Shown here piece after piece: positions 1-42,690 of a stretch of DNA of 64,000 nucleotides. The number at the start of each line of letters is the position of its first letter. Position 1 is the stretch's first letter. The stretch lies in the NCBI GenBank assembly GCA_000004985.1, contig GG738914.1. The stretch is one strand, 5' to 3'. The translations under genes were made by a program, and so were the position numbers. The notes under the pieces were generated by a model. That model ran no database searches. It was not told where the DNA came from and worked only from the letters and a program-made list of their open reading frames with translations. The stretch is from Naegleria gruberi (taxonomy: Eukaryota).

Positions 1-677
1 GGTTTTCAAATTATTTATTTACCCTATGCAGATGGTATTAGAAAATTACAAGAATTTACAAATGAACAAACACCAACTGATAAACATATTCAATTAGCTA
101 AAAAGATTACAAAGAAATTAACAATAGATTTTAATCCACATGAATTTACAAATCCATCACTTCAACAATTTTATCAATCATTACAAGCATTAGCTTTAGA
201 ACATTCAAATATTGAACAAATTGAAGATGTTTTAAAACCTGATAAGGAGGGTATGAAGAAGTATGAAAATTTAATGAATGAATTTAAAGATATGATATTC
301 CCTTCTGATTATGATCCTGATTCTAAAAAGTTGACAAAATCAACAACACGTACTTCTTCTTCAAAGGTTAAGAAGGAAGAAGAAGAAGAAGCAACAACAG
401 CAGCAGCAGACTCTCAAGATGTATCTGAATCAACATCTAAAAAGAAAACTGCAACACGTAAAAAGACTAATGATTCCAAGAAACGTAAAAAGGCAGAAGA
501 ATCTGAAGAGGAAGAAGAAAAAAAGCCAAAGAAAAAGAAGGCTGAATTATCTGAATCTGATGAAGAAGAAGAAGAAATTGATATGGTACAATTAATTAAA
601 GATGGTAAAGCAGATAAATTGAAAGTAGATATTTTGAAAGAATTTTGTAAACAATACAAATTGAAAGTGAGTGGAAG
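1..677 (+). CDS. Ku70 (XRCC6-like) C-terminal portion, partial CDS; it enters from upstream of the window and runs into the N-gap
   Basis: Frame-1 translation from nt 1 reads GFQIIYLPYADGIRKLQEF...NPSLQQFYQSLQALALEHSNIEQIEDVLKPDKEGMKKYENLMNEFKDMIFPSDYDPD. An acidic/basic linker (EEEE, KKRKK) follows, then VDILKEFCKQYKLKVSG, which resembles the Ku70 SAP motif (compare human LKEACRAYGLKSG). The ORF is open from position 1. Confidence 0.65.
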
Positions 678-768: not shown

Positions 769-1404
769 TCATTGAATATCAACTTGTTCTTGAGCTAGTT
801 CAATATTCCAAATTGACATGTGTGACATAAAGCCTTCATAAAATCCAAAATTTGGATTTCCTTTCATAGCATAACCAATACATAATTTATCCATAACAGG
901 TTTATATAATTTATCAATGGATGTATTAACATTTTTATCCAATTTTCCATTTAAGTAAAATTTTAAATTTCCATTTTTAAAAGTAAAACAACAATGATTC
1001 CATTCATTAATAATAACATTAGATGATGAAGATTGACCACATATTTGAATTGACACATTGTCATTTCTACTTCCTAAGAATCTAATCTTATTTTGGTAAA
1101 TGTCAAATCCAAATCCACCAAAGCCTTCACCTGCCACACATGAATCAAATATTCTGACATCTCCAGATTTAGTAGGTTTAATCCATGTCATCATTGTTAA
1201 TTGTGATACTTTTTCATCATTACTATTTATATCATATAATTGTTTTGGAATTGTCATTTGAAAATGAATACTATTTTTAAATGAAAATACTTGATTTAAT
1301 CCATCTTGATCGTTATTAGATAATGAAGAAGAATTATTAGTTGGAATTGTTTCTTCAAACAATGATGGTGACTGATGGGTTGTTGAGGTTTGTTGTTGTC
1401 CCAT
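769..1404 (-). CDS. pentraxin/LamG-like (concanavalin A-like lectin fold) protein, copy A of a tandem duplicate
   Basis: 211-aa ORF. It contains NEWNHCCFTFKNGNLKFYLNGKL and a C-terminal GFYEGFMSHMSIWNIE, resembling the pentraxin HxCxS/TW...FWVDGK core and the terminal beta strands. Upstream on the same strand, MSDVMLQQRLQLSYDDEFYKFIFQTYKKK (1296-1493) is out of frame because of an A9 homopolymer, whereas copy B has A10. Confidence 0.45.
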   Translation of the reverse strand: MGQQQTSTTHQSPSLFEETIPTNNSSSLSNNDQDGLNQVFSFKNSIHFQMTIPKQLYDINSNDEKVSQLTMMTWIKPTKSGDVRIFDSCVAGEGFGGFGFDIYQNKIRFLGSRNDNVSIQICGQSSSSNVIINEWNHCCFTFKNGNLKFYLNGKLDKNVNTSIDKLYKPVMDKLCIGYAMKGNPNFGFYEGFMSHMSIWNIELAQEQVDIQ

Positions 1405-1652
1405 TTTTTTTTGTATGTTTGAAATATGAACTTGTAAAACTCATCATCATATGATAATTGTAGTCTCTGTTGTAACATAACATCACTCATCAATTAAATA
1501 ATTTTCATGATTATTTATTAGTATTATTATATTCACTGAAAATAACCATTTTCAAAATTTACAAATATCCACACAAATACTAATTTAAATTAGAAAATAT
1601 TGTAAATTCCTAATTAATAATGTTTTTCATTATTCAGAGAGAATTTCCAATA

Positions 1653-2390
1653 TTAAGAACTATCATAATTCAATGCAGAGGCAGTTAGTAAATTTGATGA
1701 TGATGTGTTATTTTTCTTCTTTTTCTTCTTTTCATTTTCATCTTTTCGTTTTCTCTTTTTTACTTCCACAATTTCTAATTGAGAAATTAAATCTTCTTTT
1801 TCCAAAGTTTGTTCCACTAATTCATCTGCTGATACTACTCCAATATTATCAATACTATCAATACCACTATTAATACTTGTATCTTTAATTACAATATGAG
1901 ATTCTTGTAAATATTTCTGAATTTCTTCCTTTTCCTTATTAATAATTTCCAATCTTTCATTCTTTAATTTTTCTTCCTGTTCCTTTAAATAGAGAATATC
2001 ATCTTCATCAAGTGATCTTGGTGCTTGATTTCCAATAACTTGTTCTAATTCTTGTTGTTTTTTCAATTTATTTTCCATTAATCTTTCATAGAGTGGTCTT
2101 GTATCGGCTTCTTCTTCTTCATCTGCTAGTGATGATTCTCTAGATTCTAATAGAGAGGTCCATTTAGGATTTGAATGTTGTTGATTAGATGTGGATGATG
2201 ATGATTCATTATTTAGGCTTGTTTCTTCTTGTTGATCAACATCATTGTATTCCGAAGATGATGATTTAAATTCTAATTTTGTTCTCGATGAAAAAGTATC
2301 TGCTAGTTTTTTCTTTGCATTAGTAGTGGTAGTAGTAGTAGTATTGCTATTAGTGGTGGTATTGAATGGAAGATTAGAGTGATCCATCAT
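1653..2390 (-). CDS. NIP30/FAM192A-like protein (PA28gamma-interacting family), copy A
   Basis: 245-aa acidic protein. TRPLYERLMENKLKKQQELEQVIGNQAPRSLDEDDILYLKEQEEKL matches the conserved NIP30 N-terminal domain pattern (SLYERLQEQK...LDEDE..FL). A charged coiled-coil tail follows. Confidence 0.5.
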   Translation of the reverse strand: MMDHSNLPFNTTTNSNTTTTTTTNAKKKLADTFSSRTKLEFKSSSSEYNDVDQQEETSLNNESSSSTSNQQHSNPKWTSLLESRESSLADEEEEADTRPLYERLMENKLKKQQELEQVIGNQAPRSLDEDDILYLKEQEEKLKNERLEIINKEKEEIQKYLQESHIVIKDTSINSGIDSIDNIGVVSADELVEQTLEKEDLISQLEIVEVKKRKRKDENEKKKKKKNNTSSSNLLTASALNYDSS

Positions 2391-2447
2391 AATTTTTATT
2401 TTTTTAAATTTAAAATTTATTATTTATTTTGAAGATGTAGCCTAGTA

Positions 2448-2497
2448 NNNNNNNNNNNNNNNNNNNNNNNNNNNNNNNNNNNNNNNNNNNNNNNNNN
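2448..2497. other. assembly gap (50 N)
   Basis: Run of exactly 50 n between the two copies of the ~1.6 kb tandem repeat. Confidence 0.95.
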
Positions 2498-2499
2498 GA

Positions 2500-3040
2500 C
2501 ATGTGTGACATAAAGCCTTCATAAAATCCAGAATTTGGATTTCCTTTCATAGCATAACCAATACATAATTTATCCATAACAGGTTTATATAATTTATCAA
2601 TGGACGTATTTACATTTTTATCCAATTTTCCACCAAACCTGTTATGGATAAATTACATGTATGTGGATACATGTAAATGTGGTTACATATGAATCAAATA
2701 TTCTGACATCTCCAGATTTAGTAGGTTTAATCCATGCCATCATTGTTAATTGTGATACTTTTTCATCATTACTATTTATATCATATAATTGTTTTGGAAT
2801 TGTCATTTGAAAATGAATACTATTTTTAAATGAAAATACTTGATTTAATCCATCTTGATCGTTATTAGATAATGAAGAAGAATTATTAGTTGGAATTGTT
2901 TCTTTAAACAATGATGGTGACTGCTGGGTTGTTGAGGTTTGTTGTTGTCCCATTTTTTTTTTGTATGTTTGAAATATGAACTTGTAAAACTCATCAATAT
3001 ATGATATTTGTAGTCTCTGTTGTAACATAACATCACTCAT
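2500..3040 (-). pseudogene. pentraxin/LamG-like gene, copy B, disrupted by an internal deletion
   Basis: About 97-99% identical to copy A at both ends. Roughly 450 bp of coding sequence (copy A ~961-1160 onward) is replaced at 2633-2700 by ~60 bp that includes an inverted copy of the adjacent sequence. The resulting ORF ends DSYVTTFTCIHIHVIYP*. The N-terminal extension is in frame here (A10). Confidence 0.55.
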
Positions 3041-3214
3041 CTATATTAAATAATTTTCATGATTATTTATTAGTATTATTATATTCACTGAAAATAACCA
3101 TTTTCAAAATTTACAAATATCCACACAAATACTAATTTAAATTAGAAAATATTGTAAATTCCTAATCAATAATGTTTTTCATTATTCAGAGAGAATTTTC
3201 AATATTAAGAACTA

Positions 3215-3940
3215 TCATAATTCAATGCAGAGGCAGTTAGTAAATTTTGATGATGTGTTATTTTTCTTCTTTTTCTTCTTTTCATTTTCATCTTTTCGTT
3301 TTCTCTTTTTTACTTCCACAATTTCTAATTGAGAAATTAAATCTTCTTTTTCCAAAGTTTGTTCCACTAATTCATCTGCTGATACTACTCCAATATTATC
3401 AATACTATCAATACCACTATTAATACTTGTATCTTTAATTACAATATGAGATTCTTGTAAATATTTCTGAATTTCTTCCTTTTCCTTATTAATAATTTCC
3501 AATCTTTCATTCTTTAATTTTTCTTCCTGTTCCTTTAAATAGAGAATATCATCTTCATCAAGTGATCTTGGTGCTTGATTTCCAATAACTTGTTCTAATT
3601 CTTGTTGTTTTTTCAATTTATTTTCCATTAATCTTTCATAGAGTGGTCTTGTATCGGCTTCTTCTTCTTCATCTGCTAATGATGATTCTCTAGATTCTAA
3701 TAGAGAGGTCCATTTAGGATTTGAATGTTGTTGATTAGAAGTGGATGATGATGATTCATTATTTAGGCTTGTTTCTTCTTGTTGATCAACATCATTGTAT
3801 TCCGAAGATGATGATTTAAATTCTAATTTTGTTCTTGATGAAAAAGTATCTGCTAGTTTTTTCTTTGCATTAGTAGTGGTAGTAGTAGTATTATTGCTAT
3901 TAGTGGTGGTATTAAATGGAAGATTAGAGTGATCCATCAT
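3215..3940 (-). CDS. NIP30/FAM192A-like protein, copy B
   Basis: 241 aa, near-identical to 1653-2390. A 3-nt and a 1-nt indel near the stop change the last ~15 residues (…NNTSSKFTNCLCIEL* versus …NNTSSSNLLTASALNYDSS*). Confidence 0.5.
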   Translation of the reverse strand: MMDHSNLPFNTTTNSNNTTTTTTNAKKKLADTFSSRTKLEFKSSSSEYNDVDQQEETSLNNESSSSTSNQQHSNPKWTSLLESRESSLADEEEEADTRPLYERLMENKLKKQQELEQVIGNQAPRSLDEDDILYLKEQEEKLKNERLEIINKEKEEIQKYLQESHIVIKDTSINSGIDSIDNIGVVSADELVEQTLEKEDLISQLEIVEVKKRKRKDENEKKKKKKNNTSSKFTNCLCIEL

Positions 3941-4365
3941 AATTGATGAAGATAAATATCTTTTATTTTTTTAAATTTAAAATTTATTAAAATATTAATT
4001 TTGAAGATGTAGCCTATTGGACAAGCAATCACTCAATATGACAAAGTAATAATTCTGCTATTTTGTGTATTGCTAATGGTTGAACCATTTTAATCCAAGA
4101 ACTTGTTCCAAATAACCACTTGAAAACCTGTGGGTTAAATATTGAATGCGAAACTTTCCACAGTTAATAATTTTTACTCAGATGAACCTTTGACACACAA
4201 AGTAAGACAGATAACAATTTATAACTCAATATTTATATCACATGTCGATTCGCATAATAGAGGTTGCTTATCAATACATTGAATTATAAATAAATATTCA
4301 AAAATCAAAAATCAAAAAAACTCATACACGTTAATTCATCATCCACACACCTGCTGAGAGCGAGA

Positions 4366-6729
4366 TTGAAAATGTTACTTCAAACATCATCAGAATTCAT
4401 TAATGATAATACAACAACAAGTGGTACCAACTCTACACAATTAGCCTTGTTGAAATGTAAATTATCATCCGAGAGAACATTACATGGATTAGGCTTTGAT
4501 GGTTCTAATTTACAAACCTACTTGGATGCACATATCAATGTTGATCAATTCCTCCTACAAATATTCTCTCATCAACAATTAGATACTCTGAAGGGTGCTG
4601 CTATTGCTGGTTTTACAAAATTATTAAATACATGGAATCCTAGTAATAGTAATAATAATAGCAATAATACATCATCAACAACAACAACAACAGATAAAGT
4701 CTATACTCCACAACAAGATACAATGAGTGTTGTTATTATTGATGTTGATTATTGGAATGAATTTCCATCATTAATTAATAATACTAATATTAATAATAAT
4801 GCTAAATATGGTATTCATATTCCATATCATGGAATGTTAGCAATTGGAGTTAAATTTGGTAATTTTCTAATGAGATGGACAGAATATGGTATTGTTGATA
4901 TTATTAATTTACAACAATTCTCTCCAAGTACTTTACAAAAATCTTTAATTATTAAAACAGTATCAACACCTATTAAATATAATACAAGTAATTTGAAAAA
5001 GATTGCAAATTTAATAATTCAATATAATACTCAATATCAATATGATTTATATGATAAAAGTCCAATTCAATTTATTAGAGATTTAATGGAATGTGTTGGA
5101 ATTAATTTCAAATTAGGAAAATGTAGTTTATTATTAAAAATTATTGAAACTCATTGGAAAAAGTTTTTTGGTAATGAAAAATGTGGAATTATTATAAATC
5201 CATATATTGAATCTGATAATTTATATAATTGTACAGATTATTCACATTTTATTGAAATTTCAAAGAATTTATTACAATATAATATTACCTATTCAAGTGA
5301 ATATTCATTTGAATGGTCAATTTTAAAATCATTTGAAAGAACTTTAAGATTATTATCAATGTCATGTACATTTGAACCTTCACTAAGACATGATTATATT
5401 GTAAATTCAAATACTGAACAATTATTTGGAAATGTTTCAATTAATACTAATACATTGAAATATATTTCATCTTCATTTAATATTGAAGAAGAAAATTCAA
5501 ATACAGATAAAAAGAATTCTGATACCATATTTGTATTATGTATGGATGGTGGTGGTACAAGAGGTCTCATTCTCTCAATTATTTTACGTGAAATTGAAAA
5601 GAGAACTAATCGTAAATTGAATGATATTTTTGATTTAGTTTGTGGAACATCAACTGGTGCTCTAACTTCAAGATGTGTTCAATCTGGTTTATCTGGTGAA
5701 GAAATTCAAACTCTTTATACTCAATTAGCAACTGATATTTTCAGTTCTAAATTAATTTTAAATGAAAAAATTACAAAATTTTACAAGACAGTTTCCTCTG
5801 GTAATTGGTATGAAGGAAGTAAATTAGAAGCACTTACATTGAGTAAAATTTCAAGATCCAAAGAGAATGATATCCTCTATTTACAAGATTTATATCAAAT
5901 TAAACCAAAGGCATTCTTTGTGAGTACTTTGGTCCCATCCACATTATCATTACAATCAATGAGTGATAATAATTCTATCAACAACAACACTAACAACACC
6001 TCCACCTCCTCCAATCAATCAAATAATAATACTACATCTGGTCAGTTGGAATATGAACGTGCTAGGTCAGATGAACCAATTTCATACATTTTTAGAACTT
6101 ATCCATGTCCATTCAATAAGGAAAATCAACCTACAAGATATAAGGGAACATGGAATGGACAAAATATTCCACTTTCAAGTTGTTTAAGAGCATCAACTGC
6201 TGCACCTGTATATTTTGATAAGAAGAGAATTGGTAATTCTCATTTCATTGATGGTGGTATTTGTAACAATAATCCAACTGAAATTGCCATTACTGAAATG
6301 AAGAAAATCTTTCCAAATCACACAAACTTTTGTGTTATTAGTTTAGGTACTGGTAAATATGTTAAACCAGCTCAACAACAACCAGAAAAAAAGTCATGGT
6401 TTTCATTTGGTCAATCCAATCCTCCTACTCCATCTTCAAATAAGGGATCTGATAAGATTACAGCTAATTTGACAACATTATTAGATATCTTTGAATTGAG
6501 TATGTCAAGTGAAGCAATTTCAAGAAGAGTTCAAGATATTGTGAATGAACAAACAGATAAGAATATTACCTATTTTAGACTTAATCCATCTTTACCAACT
6601 GATATTCCATTAGATTCTACTTTACCAGAAGTTTTTGAATTAATGGCTCAACAAACAAGAGAATATCTCAGAAATGAATCTGAATCTTTTGAAAAGATTA
6701 TCAAATTACTTTCAAATACTTGTAAATAA
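4366..6729 (+). CDS. patatin-like phospholipase (PNPLA/iPLA2 family)
   Basis: 787-aa ORF with CMDGGGTRGLILS (GGGxRG oxyanion motif), CGTSTGA (GxSxG nucleophile) and FIDGGICNNNP (catalytic DGG). Confidence 0.85.
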   Translation: MKMLLQTSSEFINDNTTTSGTNSTQLALLKCKLSSERTLHGLGFDGSNLQTYLDAHINVDQFLLQIFSHQQLDTLKGAAIAGFTKLLNTWNPSNSNNNSNNTSSTTTTTDKVYTPQQDTMSVVIIDVDYWNEFPSLINNTNINNNAKYGIHIPYHGMLAIGVKFGNFLMRWTEYGIVDIINLQQFSPSTLQKSLIIKTVSTPIKYNTSNLKKIANLIIQYNTQYQYDLYDKSPIQFIRDLMECVGINFKLGKCSLLLKIIETHWKKFFGNEKCGIIINPYIESDNLYNCTDYSHFIEISKNLLQYNITYSSEYSFEWSILKSFERTLRLLSMSCTFEPSLRHDYIVNSNTEQLFGNVSINTNTLKYISSSFNIEEENSNTDKKNSDTIFVLCMDGGGTRGLILSIILREIEKRTNRKLNDIFDLVCGTSTGALTSRCVQSGLSGEEIQTLYTQLATDIFSSKLILNEKITKFYKTVSSGNWYEGSKLEALTLSKISRSKENDILYLQDLYQIKPKAFFVSTLVPSTLSLQSMSDNNSINNNTNNTSTSSNQSNNNTTSGQLEYERARSDEPISYIFRTYPCPFNKENQPTRYKGTWNGQNIPLSSCLRASTAAPVYFDKKRIGNSHFIDGGICNNNPTEIAITEMKKIFPNHTNFCVISLGTGKYVKPAQQQPEKKSWFSFGQSNPPTPSSNKGSDKITANLTTLLDIFELSMSSEAISRRVQDIVNEQTDKNITYFRLNPSLPTDIPLDSTLPEVFELMAQQTREYLRNESESFEKIIKLLSNTCK

Positions 6730-6734
6730 AAATT

Positions 6735-7487
6735 TTATAAAATCCAATCTTCTCTCATTGTCTTTTCACCTTTAACATATGGAGTATATCCCTTAATAAT
6801 TTCATCCATTGAAGGAAGTTCCTTATTATTCTTGAAATAATCTTGTTGAGTATTAACTTTGTAAAATTCCTTAATACGTTTCAAATCACTTCCCATTTCA
6901 AATCCCTTAAATTGTTTCAAAACATCAAGTCTGACAAGGAATGGTAAATACATCATATCAACCATTGAAGGTTCAGAAATATCACCTAAAAAGAATGGAG
7001 ATTTTTCACCATTTGATTCTTGCATTGCTTTCAATCCTTCATTTTCAAGGAATTGTAAACATTCTTCCAATTTTTGTTTTAAAACTTGTTCCTTAGATGG
7101 ATCTTGATTAAACATGTAAGCATAAATAGATTTAGCCAATCTTGTATTACAATAATAAGTCCAACTACGTTGCATAGCTCTCATATATGGATCTTTGTGC
7201 ATCAAATCATGTTGAGTATAAACATCATTGACATATTGATAAATTGCTGCAGATTCATAAATAGGCTTGTTATTATGAACAAGAACTGGAACCTTTTCAT
7301 AGCCCCGATCAATATATCACTGATCATCATTACTTACCTTTCCATATGGAGTCAAGGAGAGAAATTCCTTACTCTTCAAACTTAAATTAACATTAATATT
7401 TTCATAGGCTACTTCCTTGAAGGCAAGAATCAATTTAATTCTATCAACGAATGGACACAAACGAGAACCGTAGAGTTTTAAAGACAT
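6735..7487 (-). CDS. glutathione S-transferase, omega/Cys-type, 2 exons (7338-7487; 6735-7292) with a 45-nt GTAAGT..AAAAG intron
   Basis: Exon 1 encodes MSLKLYGSRLCPFVDRIKLILAFKEVAYENINVNLSLKSKEFLSLTPYGK, a thioredoxin-fold N-domain with a CPF active-site cysteine. Exon 2 encodes VPVLVHNNKPIYESAAIYQYVNDVY...MMHKDPY..., an alpha-helical GST C-domain. The reading frame is consistent across the splice. Confidence 0.75.
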
Positions 7488-26634: not shown

Positions 26635-27813
26635 ATGTCTTTTTCATTTGGTACCACTTCAAATCAAAATAAGCCTGCAACCACAGGATTTAATTTCGGT
26701 ACCACAAATAACACTGGAACAACAGGAGGTACTTCAACTGGATTTAACTTCGGAGCACCAACAACAACAGCTAACACACAACCAACAACAGGATTTAACT
26801 TTGGTACAACCAATACACAACCAACTCAGCCAACAACTGGAACAACAGGATCAACTGGATTTAATTTTGGTACAACAGGTACAGCAACAAATACACAACC
26901 AACTCAGCCAACAACCGGATTTAATTTTGGTACTACAAACACTGTTGCTAATACAAATACTGGATTTAATTTAGGAACTCCTACAAATAATCCAATTGAT
27001 AATAGTTTCAAAATTATTGAATTAAAGTATAAATCTTCCACTGATACTCCTGACAATCCATATTGTAAATTTATTGTAGGTTTTGATGATTTGAACTTAA
27101 CAAGTACTAATTTTATTTAACAGCATTTCTTTTATAATGTAGTTGATGATGGGAAGCAACAAGCAACTTTAGAAGCCTTGACGAGAAAATATGCTAGATC
27201 TATTAACCCAGAATTATGGAGACAAGCTATGGAAAAAAACCCAGATCCGTCTAGATTAGTTCCAATACCTGCAACATCTTTTAAAGATGTCAAAGACCGT
27301 GTGGAAAAACAACAAAAGAGAATTGAATTAATGAACGATTTTTTGAAAGTATTGGATTCTAAAATTTCTGAATGCAAAACTAAACATGAAGCTGATACTA
27401 TGAGTAGAATTGGTGGTATTAAACAAAGACATACTGATCTATCCCATAGAATTCTTAAAATTCAAAGCAAACTCGAGGTATTGACACAATCAGGTATTGG
27501 TATTAGAAATGAAGACATTTCATTGAGAAACAAATTAAATACCTTACAAAGAGAATTACACAAACCAAATCAATTTAGAGGAAGACTTATTGAATTATCT
27601 CCTCAAGTCAATTACTATTTACAACAATCTAACTTGTTACTGAATAATAATACTTTAGATGATGAAACTAAAGAAAATGTAAAGAACTTTTTGGAACAAC
27701 AAACAAATGGATTAAATGAGTTATTGTCCATATTGAAGAAGGATATTAAGGATATTAATTATATCAAGCAACAAGTATCTGCAGATAAACAAAAACGCTC
27801 AATAAATTATTAA
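26635..27813 (+). CDS. FG-repeat nucleoporin of Nup54/Nup57 type, 2 exons (26635-27064; 27141-27813) with a 76-nt intron
   Basis: Exon 1 carries ~10 GFNFGT/FG repeats (MSFSFGTTSNQNKPATTGFNFGTTNNTGTTGG...). The intron is GTAAAT...TACTAAT(branch)...TAG. Exon 2 (F)DDGKQQATLEALTRKYARSINPELWRQAMEKNPDPSRLVPIPATSFKDVKDRVEKQQKRI... is the alpha-helical Nup54-type domain with coiled coils. The frame is continuous. Confidence 0.7.
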
Positions 27814-31442: not shown

Positions 31443-32285
31443 TTGTTGATTAAAAAAATGTCATCAAGTGATTCTGAAGCTACCACCAATAACACCACTA
31501 CTAGTGATTCTCTCAAACCGTCTACTCCTCATTATACTTCCAAATTCTCATCACTCTCTGGATTTGGTATGAAAATTTTGGGAAAGTACGGATTTCAAGC
31601 TGGTGAAGGATTGGGAAAGAACAAGGATGGCATCAAGGATCATGTAACTACTTCTAAAAAGTATCATCAAACAGGTATTGGTATTGGTTCTGAAAAGGAA
31701 AAGAAACCAAATTATTGGTGGGAAAACTCTTATAATCAAATGTTGGATAATATTGCCAAGAAGAAATCTACTTCCGATTCTGATTCAAGCAGTGATTCAT
31801 CTGATGAGGAAGAAAAGAAAAAGAAGGAAAAGAAGGAAAAGAAGGAAAAAAAGAAGGAGAAGAAGGAAAAAAAGGAAAAGAAAGAGGAATCCGAAGAAAA
31901 ATCCGACAAGAAGAAGAAGGAAAAGAAAGAAAAGAAAGAAAAGAAGAGTAAGAAGAGATCCAAAGAAGATTCTTCTGATAGTGACTCTAATTCATCAAAT
32001 GAAGAAAAAACAAGCAAAAAGACTAAACATTGCACAGTAGAAGGATCTTCAGTTTTACAACCAGAATTTTTCAAAGAATGTGAAGGAAGAACTTTGAAGA
32101 AATACAGACAAGAGGGTAAAGAATCCAGAGCTAAGAAACACGAAGATGAATTAATTGCAAAATTGAAGGAAGCCAAAGAGAAAATGGATGCTTTCAATCA
32201 ACAAAGAAAATTCAAACATGTTGTTACTGAGAAGAGAAAGGTTCAACAAAACAAGGTCAAAGTTTATAGAGATTTTGAAGATTAA
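31443..32285 (+). CDS. G-patch nucleolar protein of PinX1/Pxr1 type with a Lys/Glu-repeat tail
   Basis: 280 aa. N-terminal G-patch SGFGMKILGKYGFQAGEGLGKNKDGIKDHV, then TGIGIGSEKEKKPNYWWENSYNQMLDNI (compare PinX1 NNHLGLG...DNW...FNQLL). It has (KKEKKE)n repeats like yeast Pxr1 (KKDKKDKK). Confidence 0.65.
   Translation: MLIKKMSSSDSEATTNNTTTSDSLKPSTPHYTSKFSSLSGFGMKILGKYGFQAGEGLGKNKDGIKDHVTTSKKYHQTGIGIGSEKEKKPNYWWENSYNQMLDNIAKKKSTSDSDSSSDSSDEEEKKKKEKKEKKEKKKEKKEKKEKKEESEEKSDKKKKEKKEKKEKKSKKRSKEDSSDSDSNSSNEEKTSKKTKHCTVEGSSVLQPEFFKECEGRTLKKYRQEGKESRAKKHEDELIAKLKEAKEKMDAFNQQRKFKHVVTEKRKVQQNKVKVYRDFED
31800..31965 (+). repeat. coding microsatellite (GAA/AAG-rich; encodes (KKEKKE)n) inside the PinX1-like gene
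   Basis: gaggaagaaaagaaaaagaaggaaaagaaggaaaagaaggaaaaaaagaaggagaagaaggaaaaaaaggaaaag... is an imperfect 9/18-nt periodicity. Confidence 0.6.
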
Positions 32286-42619: not shown

Positions 42620-42690
42620 TGCGTCGACCGGGAATTGAACCCGGGTCACGGCGATGGCAACGCCGTATTCTACCACTAAACCATCGACGC
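42620..42690 (-). tRNA. tRNA-Gly (GCC)
   Basis: Reverse complement GCGTCGA TG GTTTAGTGGTAGAAT ACGGCG TTGCCAT CGCCGT GACCCGGGTTCAATTCCCGGTCGACGC A. It has a 7-bp acceptor, D arm, anticodon loop TTGCCAT (GCC), T arm GGTTCAATTCC and discriminator A. A downstream TTTTTT (plus 42605-42610) is a Pol III terminator. Confidence 0.85.

Follow-up and report, generated by a model that had tools for sequence, protein, structure and literature searches.

The 64,000-nt window analysed here, from the Naegleria gruberi contig GG738914.1, carries near its left end a pair of minus-strand genes that is written twice, a gene for a LamG-like protein and a FAM192A/NIP30 gene. An earlier note on this DNA was headed as a recent tandem duplication and mentioned uncollapsed alleles or haplotypes as an alternative. 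The analysis disfavours the duplication and favours the alternative. The apparent tandem duplication probably represents two haplotypes of one heterozygous locus (probability of about 0.72), which stayed unmerged and were scaffolded in series. The layout of contigs and gaps, the homology that ends at contig ends, the unsequenced junction and the heterozygosity reported for this organism all favour this reading. The assembly feature would be an ordinary draft-assembly artefact: the repeat is real as sequence, and the tandem duplication is most likely not genomic. We infer that both sequences share one chromosomal position.

The repeat pair and the gap layout

Two near-identical direct repeats of about 1.6 kb, which the earlier note had described, are present at 815–2444 and 2498–4016 (blastn E = 0, far above chance). 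They differ by substitutions at 21 of 1,432 aligned nucleotides (1.47%), with indels in addition. The ungapped blocks are 51–300 nt long, and the five longest (91–300 nt) are 96–100% identical. When the units were compared by megablast, one match of 1,262 bp (98.5% identity) and another of 135 bp (97.8%) were obtained, and with indels counted the match is 1,334 bp at 96.8%. Apart from this pair, the window, with a G+C content of 32.6%, has no repeat of more than 100 bp. The gene content given in the note was also recovered, as Laminin_G_3 and FAM192A_Fyv6_N Pfam matches on the minus strand. The two FAM192A open reading frames (ORFs) are N. gruberi NEG-M proteins, both on a 233,110-bp scaffold. 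The copy-1 ORF is 100% identical over its full length to EFC37805/XP_002670549 (NAEGRDRAFT_53447, 245 aa), and the copy-2 ORF corresponds to EFC37807/XP_002670551 (NAEGRDRAFT_53448, 241 aa). The features of the region are listed below.

1–677, plus strand: Ku70 gene, 3' part, with the Ku_C arm and the start of the SAP domain (Pfam Ku_C E = 1.4e-18), interrupted by gap 1
678–727: gap 1, a run of 50 Ns left of copy 1
728–2447: contig A, 1,720 bp, standing alone between the window's only two gaps; copy 1, proposed haplotype 1
769–1404, minus strand: intact Laminin_G_3 (LamG-like) ORF, 211 aa (Pfam E = 1.4e-17)
1653–2390, minus strand: FAM192A/NIP30 gene copy 1, 245 aa, EFC37805 (NAEGRDRAFT_53447); its C-terminus has the conserved ending ...YDSS
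2448–2497: gap 2, a run of 50 Ns exactly at the supposed junction of copy 1 and copy 2
2498–4016: copy 2, proposed haplotype 2, the opening 1.5 kb of contig B, which runs to the window end
2633–2684: 52-bp filler standing where copy 1 has 186 bp of LamG core coding sequence (950–1135)
2642–2953, minus strand: truncated LamG ORF, 103 aa, EFC37806 (NAEGRDRAFT_74413), ending in out-of-frame filler
3215–3940, minus strand: FAM192A gene copy 2, 241 aa, EFC37807 (NAEGRDRAFT_53448), with the conserved ...SNLLTASALNYDSS tail replaced by KFTNCLCIEL
3944–3960: 17-bp segment upstream of the FAM192A ATG; copy 2 and the environmental contig L004 have it, copy 1 does not
4366–6729: patatin-like phospholipase gene, which flanks the repeat pair, with Ku70 on the other flank

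The window contains exactly two runs of Ns, 678–727 and 2448–2497, each of 50 nt. The pair had been described as bounded by these two gaps, which is not the case: gap 1 lies left of copy 1, gap 2 lies between the copies, and copy 2 ends at 4016 without a gap. The published N. gruberi assembly comprises 1,977 contigs, 784 scaffolds and 40.9 Mb (PMC6125883). Since gaps occur on average about every 34 kb in that assembly, two of them at a distance of 1.7 kb make up a local cluster, and the sole long repeat in 64 kb coincides with them. The suggestion of the note that the assembler struggled at this site is shared here.

Contig A aligns to 2498–4016 of contig B over 815–2444, and its first 87 nt (728–814) have no counterpart in contig B. 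The homology starts at base 1 of contig B (2498) and stops 3 nt short of the right end of contig A (2444). At each homology boundary (815/2498 and 2444/4016), one of the copies is at an end of its contig. A genuine tandem segmental duplication needs a homology boundary inside contiguous sequence, and none is found at either end. The junction, which had been placed at about 2400–2500 as if it were sequence, consists of the 50 Ns at 2448–2497: zero bases from unit 1 into unit 2 were sequenced, and contig A stops while it is still homologous to contig B. Because the junction is a run of Ns, the tandem arrangement comes from scaffolding only. The end of contig A shares 5 nt (CTAGT) with 798–802, which was considered as a possible junction microhomology and rejected, because such a match is expected by chance and a junction so close would have been bridged by reads.

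The length of gap 1 can be compared with the Ku70 gene that it interrupts. In the Ku70 orthologs of N. lovaniensis and N. fowleri, ...KLKVSG is followed by 19 further codons and a stop (SKKDLIQRITDFL.QKKKI*). At least 60 nt are accordingly missing at gap 1, so its 50 Ns are a placeholder rather than a measured size.

Comparison with haplotype mis-assemblies

Kelley & Salzberg (2010) described that divergent haplotypes in a diploid whole-genome shotgun assembly get built as two contigs (PMC2864568), and false segmental duplications from divergent haplotypes were also treated by Ko et al. (2022) (PMC9516828). The "duplicated overlapping contigs" of Kelley & Salzberg are adjacent contigs that align over more than 300 bp with an identity above 95%, the alignment being at most 300 bp from both contig ends (PMC2864568). 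The two copies in the window lie on adjacent separate contigs of one scaffold (728–2447, and 2498 to the window end, with 50 Ns between them) and exceed both thresholds, of 300 bp and of 95% identity. Their alignment lies not only within 300 bp of the facing contig ends, but within the 10 bp of the ideal form. When such cases were examined by mate pairs, 5,698 of 5,947 in chicken (96%), 13,159 of 13,571 in chimpanzee (97%) and 1,094 of 1,366 in cow (80%) were classed as mis-assemblies; in dog, which has low heterozygosity, the number was 8 of 22 (PMC2864568, Table 1).

The N. gruberi pair resembles these cases in having adjacent contigs separated by a gap, an alignment flush with the facing ends, a Sanger whole-genome shotgun origin and a genome reported to be heterozygous. 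The dimensions are also close to their worked example, which spans 1,537 bp at 98.9% identity, compared with 1.7 kb at about 98.5% for the N. gruberi contig. In contrast, the published cases are vertebrate ones classified by mate-pair likelihoods, whereas layout and sequence were used here, and contig A lies almost wholly within the overlap, with a unique flank of only 87 nt. N. gruberi NEG-M has been reported to be heterozygous with a mosaic pattern (PMC6201504), and Naegleria has been described as mainly a heterozygous diploid (PMC9928731).

In the proposed mechanism, a single locus with the order Ku70 -> LamG <- FAM192A <- patatin -> would have been written twice in the assembly. The NEG-M haplotypes would differ here by about 1.5% substitutions, by a deletion-insertion that turns 186 bp into 52 bp and by indels of 17, 5, 2 and 1 bp, and the Sanger whole-genome assembler would have failed to merge the reads of the two haplotypes. 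The haplotype-1 arm would then have become a separate 1.7-kb contig (728–2447), and the haplotype-2 arm the left end of the long contig (from 2498). Mate-pair links would tie both contigs to the same flanks, so that the contigs would be placed side by side with a placeholder gap and would look tandem. As a corollary, haplotype 2 would carry a null LamG allele, produced when a deletion was filled by an inverted templated insertion of the type that snap-back or polymerase-theta-type end joining leaves, and also a FAM192A allele with a frameshifted C-terminal tail.

Differences between the two copies

The largest difference is the replacement of 186 bp of copy 1 (950–1135) by 52 bp in copy 2 (2633–2684). 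A homopolymer has nine Ts in copy 1 (1404–1412) and ten in copy 2 (2953–2962). These two differences had been named in the note and were confirmed, but three other indels had been missed. One is a 2-bp deletion in copy 2, relative to 1696–1697, which frameshifts the FAM192A tail; the other two are a 17-bp and a 5-bp indel upstream of the FAM192A ATG. The intergenic region contains one more small indel. It had been argued that structural differences of this kind show the copies not to be simple artefact copies. The argument fails, because such differences are what stops an assembler from merging haplotypes.

The FAM192A coding sequences of the two copies differ by 0.69%, with 5 substitutions, 4 synonymous and 1 non-synonymous, compared with 2.4% in the intergenic region. 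The excess of synonymous changes and the higher intergenic divergence are a signature of purifying selection, which indicates that the differences are real variation rather than read errors.

In FAM192A, the domain FAM192A_Fyv6_N (NIP30/PIP30) scores 47 bits in both copies, compared with a cut-off of 20.2 (E = 3e-12). The ...YDSS ending exists in the FAM192A proteins of N. lovaniensis (P0004) and N. fowleri (P0005) and in P0003 and P0006, and is kept in copy 1. Copy 2 lost this ending through the 2-bp deletion. This deletion is private to copy 2, since the environmental contig L004 has the state of copy 1 at that site.

The LamG gene and its lesion in copy 2

Laminin_G_3 covers residues 65–208 of the intact 211-aa ORF with a score of 64.7 bits, compared with the Pfam gathering cut-off of 27.6. 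In the truncated copy-2 ORF, no Pfam Laminin_G_3 match was found. The LamG core encoded by 950–1135, which is the part replaced in copy 2, is also kept in the paralogs P0007 and P0008.

Within the filler, positions 2635–2655 are a perfect 21-nt inverted copy of 2566–2586, with a spacer of 48 nt; this inverted copy exists in copy 2 only and is followed by a stuttered, imperfect ACATGTA..TGTGG motif. A deletion with a templated inverted insertion is the footprint of polymerase-theta or snap-back end joining. The copy-2 lesion is like this footprint in having a 186-bp deletion and a 52-bp fill that opens with a perfect 21-nt inverted copy from 48 nt away. It is unlike it in that the mechanism is read from the scar alone, for which a chimeric clone near the contig end is the alternative. 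The filler thus looks like either a templated-insertion repair scar or the product of such a clone.

The JGI model of the LamG gene (EFC37806) begins at MGQQQ. Since the T9/T10 shift lies upstream of this annotated ATG, it is probably harmless. The N-terminal extension MSDVML... was considered as coding, in which case the shift would be a frameshift, and was rejected as unsupported, because the paralogs are without it and the JGI model starts at MGQQQ.

An exhaustive HMMER search with the LamG ORF found the N. gruberi paralog EFC39657 (46% identity), an environmental homolog (54%) and an annotated N. gruberi fragment (P0009) that is 96% identical to the ORF. A word-indexed protein search with the same ORF gave no match, which is a false negative because P0009 is in the same collection, and negatives of this search do not mean absence. 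The contig of the best LamG homolog (L005) is not syntenic and has no FAM192A, and is uninformative on copy number.

Several side observations concern the form of this gene. The stop of the LamG ORF lies 41 nt from gap 1. Its closest relatives (N. gruberi EFC39657 and the environmental protein P0007) are 340–362 aa long and have a C-terminal extension of about 140 aa beyond the LamG domain. Either the 211-aa gene has a short form, or gap 1 contains its last exon. The intact 211-aa ORF seems to be without a record in the protein collections, in which the truncated copy-2 fragment is annotated. A protein of an environmental ENA contig (P0157, 362 aa) clusters at ≥90% identity with the N. gruberi LamG paralog EFC39657, which has equal length.

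The age of the split

An 852-bp environmental contig (L004; ENA ERZ929261, run ERR1078381, PRJEB11402) covers FAM192A and encodes the protein P0006. It is neither of the two NEG-M sequences, as it has its own private changes. It has the state of copy 2 at 6 single-nucleotide polymorphisms and at the 17-bp indel, and the state of copy 1 at 1 single-nucleotide polymorphism and at the 2-bp site. The pairwise identities are 98.8% between copy 1 and copy 2, 99.0% between copy 2 and L004 and 98.4% between copy 1 and L004. Among the 9 differences between the copies within the coverage of L004, 7 fit a consistent haplotype pattern, matching one copy or the other. The public metagenome assembly behind this contig holds an organism of the N. 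gruberi complex, whose FAM192A region is 98.4–99.0% identical to NEG-M.

The states shared with L004 indicate that the split between the NEG-M copies is at least as deep as that between copy 2 and L004, and so is not very recent. Since most of the differences between the copies in the FAM192A region are common to copy 2 and L004, they predate the NEG-M clone, which contradicts the very recent event that the note had proposed. From these comparisons, copy 1 and copy 2 appear to be population-level haplotypes older than NEG-M. Two alleles from an outcrossing population would directly account for the L004 pattern.

FAM192A in related species and in public sequence collections

N. lovaniensis and N. 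fowleri have one FAM192A each, on contigs of 716 kb and 748 kb, with 35–39% protein identity to that of N. gruberi. In both species, GST lies upstream of FAM192A and Ku70 is 7–8 kb away. Because these species are distant, their single FAM192A is weak evidence against a gruberi-specific duplication. No LamG ortholog was found within 10 kb of FAM192A in either of them.

When both FAM192A ORFs and the LamG ORF were used in exact-protein look-ups, there was no match, and no second N. gruberi assembly or contig spanning the unit was found. A protein-based scan of JGI metagenome contigs and a scan of them with a DNA pattern of 23 specified bases found no relative. Contigs that span the unit are expected to carry a FAM192A of ≥90% identity, and the clusters at this level contain only L004.

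The order of neighbouring genes differs among the species. In N. fowleri, GST is directly upstream of FAM192A, and five called genes, dynamin included, lie between FAM192A and Ku70. In N. gruberi, the patatin-like phospholipase gene (4366–6729) lies between FAM192A and GST (6735–7487), and LamG is the sole gene between FAM192A and Ku70. In N. lovaniensis, a DDE transposase gene (L001 8497–9753) and a 403-aa gene are inserted between GST and FAM192A.

Weighing the explanations

The two genes could instead have undergone a genuine tandem duplication that is older than first thought, with copy 1 functional, copy 2 decaying and the assembly broken at the repeat. The pair is like a recent tandem duplication followed by pseudogenisation, as the units are head-to-tail and about 98.5% identical, and one of them has lesions in both genes. 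Repeats do produce assembly gaps, JGI annotates both sets as separate genes (EFC37805–37807), and N. gruberi has other paralogs of the LamG family. The pair is unlike such a duplication in the unsequenced junction, in unit boundaries that are contig ends only, and in the single copy of the sister species. Moreover, the copies differ at about every 70 nt and their longest identical stretch is about 430 bp, so that Sanger reads should bridge a real junction. Midpoint rooting puts the split between copy 2 and L004 after that between copy 1 and copy 2, which would make the duplication old and common to wild relatives, and only one FAM192A-like sequence was recovered in the environmental sample. 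A genuine duplication is unlikely on this evidence. Equally doubtful is the history that it would entail, a duplication old enough to be common to wild lineages of the N. gruberi complex, followed by loss of copy 2 via a tail frameshift and an end-joining deletion that brought in an inverted templated insertion.

Two other explanations were considered. Contig A could be a dispersed duplicate from elsewhere in the genome that was misplaced by the scaffolder. Small contigs are easily misplaced, and the 87 nt found in contig A only (728–814) are not tied to the Ku70 contig, as gap 1 intervenes. Placement by the scaffolder at this site, however, requires mate links to these flanks, the order and orientation fit a simple overlap with contig B, and there is no second FAM192A locus in N. 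lovaniensis or N. fowleri; such a misplacement is improbable. It is still harder to credit that contig A is a redundant contig of the same haplotype, built from reads that were chimeric or rich in errors, a pure sequencing artefact without real variation. The T9/T10 difference does resemble read-end noise, as do the final 3 nt of contig A, and the inverted 21-nt filler, 135–187 nt from a contig end, could stem from a chimeric clone. But Sanger errors do not take the form of 17-bp and 5-bp indels, and both the consistent pattern of the 7 of 9 differences covered by L004 and the 4:1 ratio of synonymous to non-synonymous substitutions in FAM192A argue against errors.

Some points weigh against unmerged haplotypes as well. 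Both gene lesions, the LamG deletion-insertion and the FAM192A tail frameshift, are on copy 2, as they would be in a redundant, decaying paralog, and this speaks most strongly for the duplication; in a diploid that propagates clonally, recessive lesions on a single haplotype are also unremarkable. The base rates of duplicated overlapping contigs stem from vertebrate assemblies, with another assembler and other organisms. The N. gruberi assembly is not broadly haplotype-redundant, as it has only 4 duplicated BUSCOs. The evidence for heterozygosity is literature on NEG-M and Naegleria rather than on this locus, whose heterozygosity does not show in a consensus sequence. The direct tests of the haplotype reading are read depth and mate-pair distances.

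Consequences for the gene set, and other features of the window

If the copies are haplotypes, then EFC37806 and EFC37807 are allelic duplicates rather than paralogs, which implies the same for one of the two FAM192A entries in UniProt and EukProt. The three gene models would then inflate gene counts and family-expansion estimates for N. gruberi, and the scaffold would be about 1.8 kb too long here. The phased pair would give a local heterozygosity of about 1.5%, and NEG-M would probably be heterozygous for a null allele of a LamG-domain gene. The main value of this result is one of caution, and nothing in it would surprise a specialist. If the tandem duplication were true, the pair would show, as a dated snapshot, how a duplicate gene decays in a heterolobosean.

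Elsewhere in the window, a tRNA-Gly(GCC) gene at 42620–42690 on the minus strand is the sole tRNA gene. Two short tandem arrays are located at 26786–26913 and 31807–31947. One has a 66-nt period and 1.9 copies; the other, rich in purines, repeats with a period of 9/21/30 nt (AGGAAAAGA). Both arrays are probably coding low-complexity repeats.

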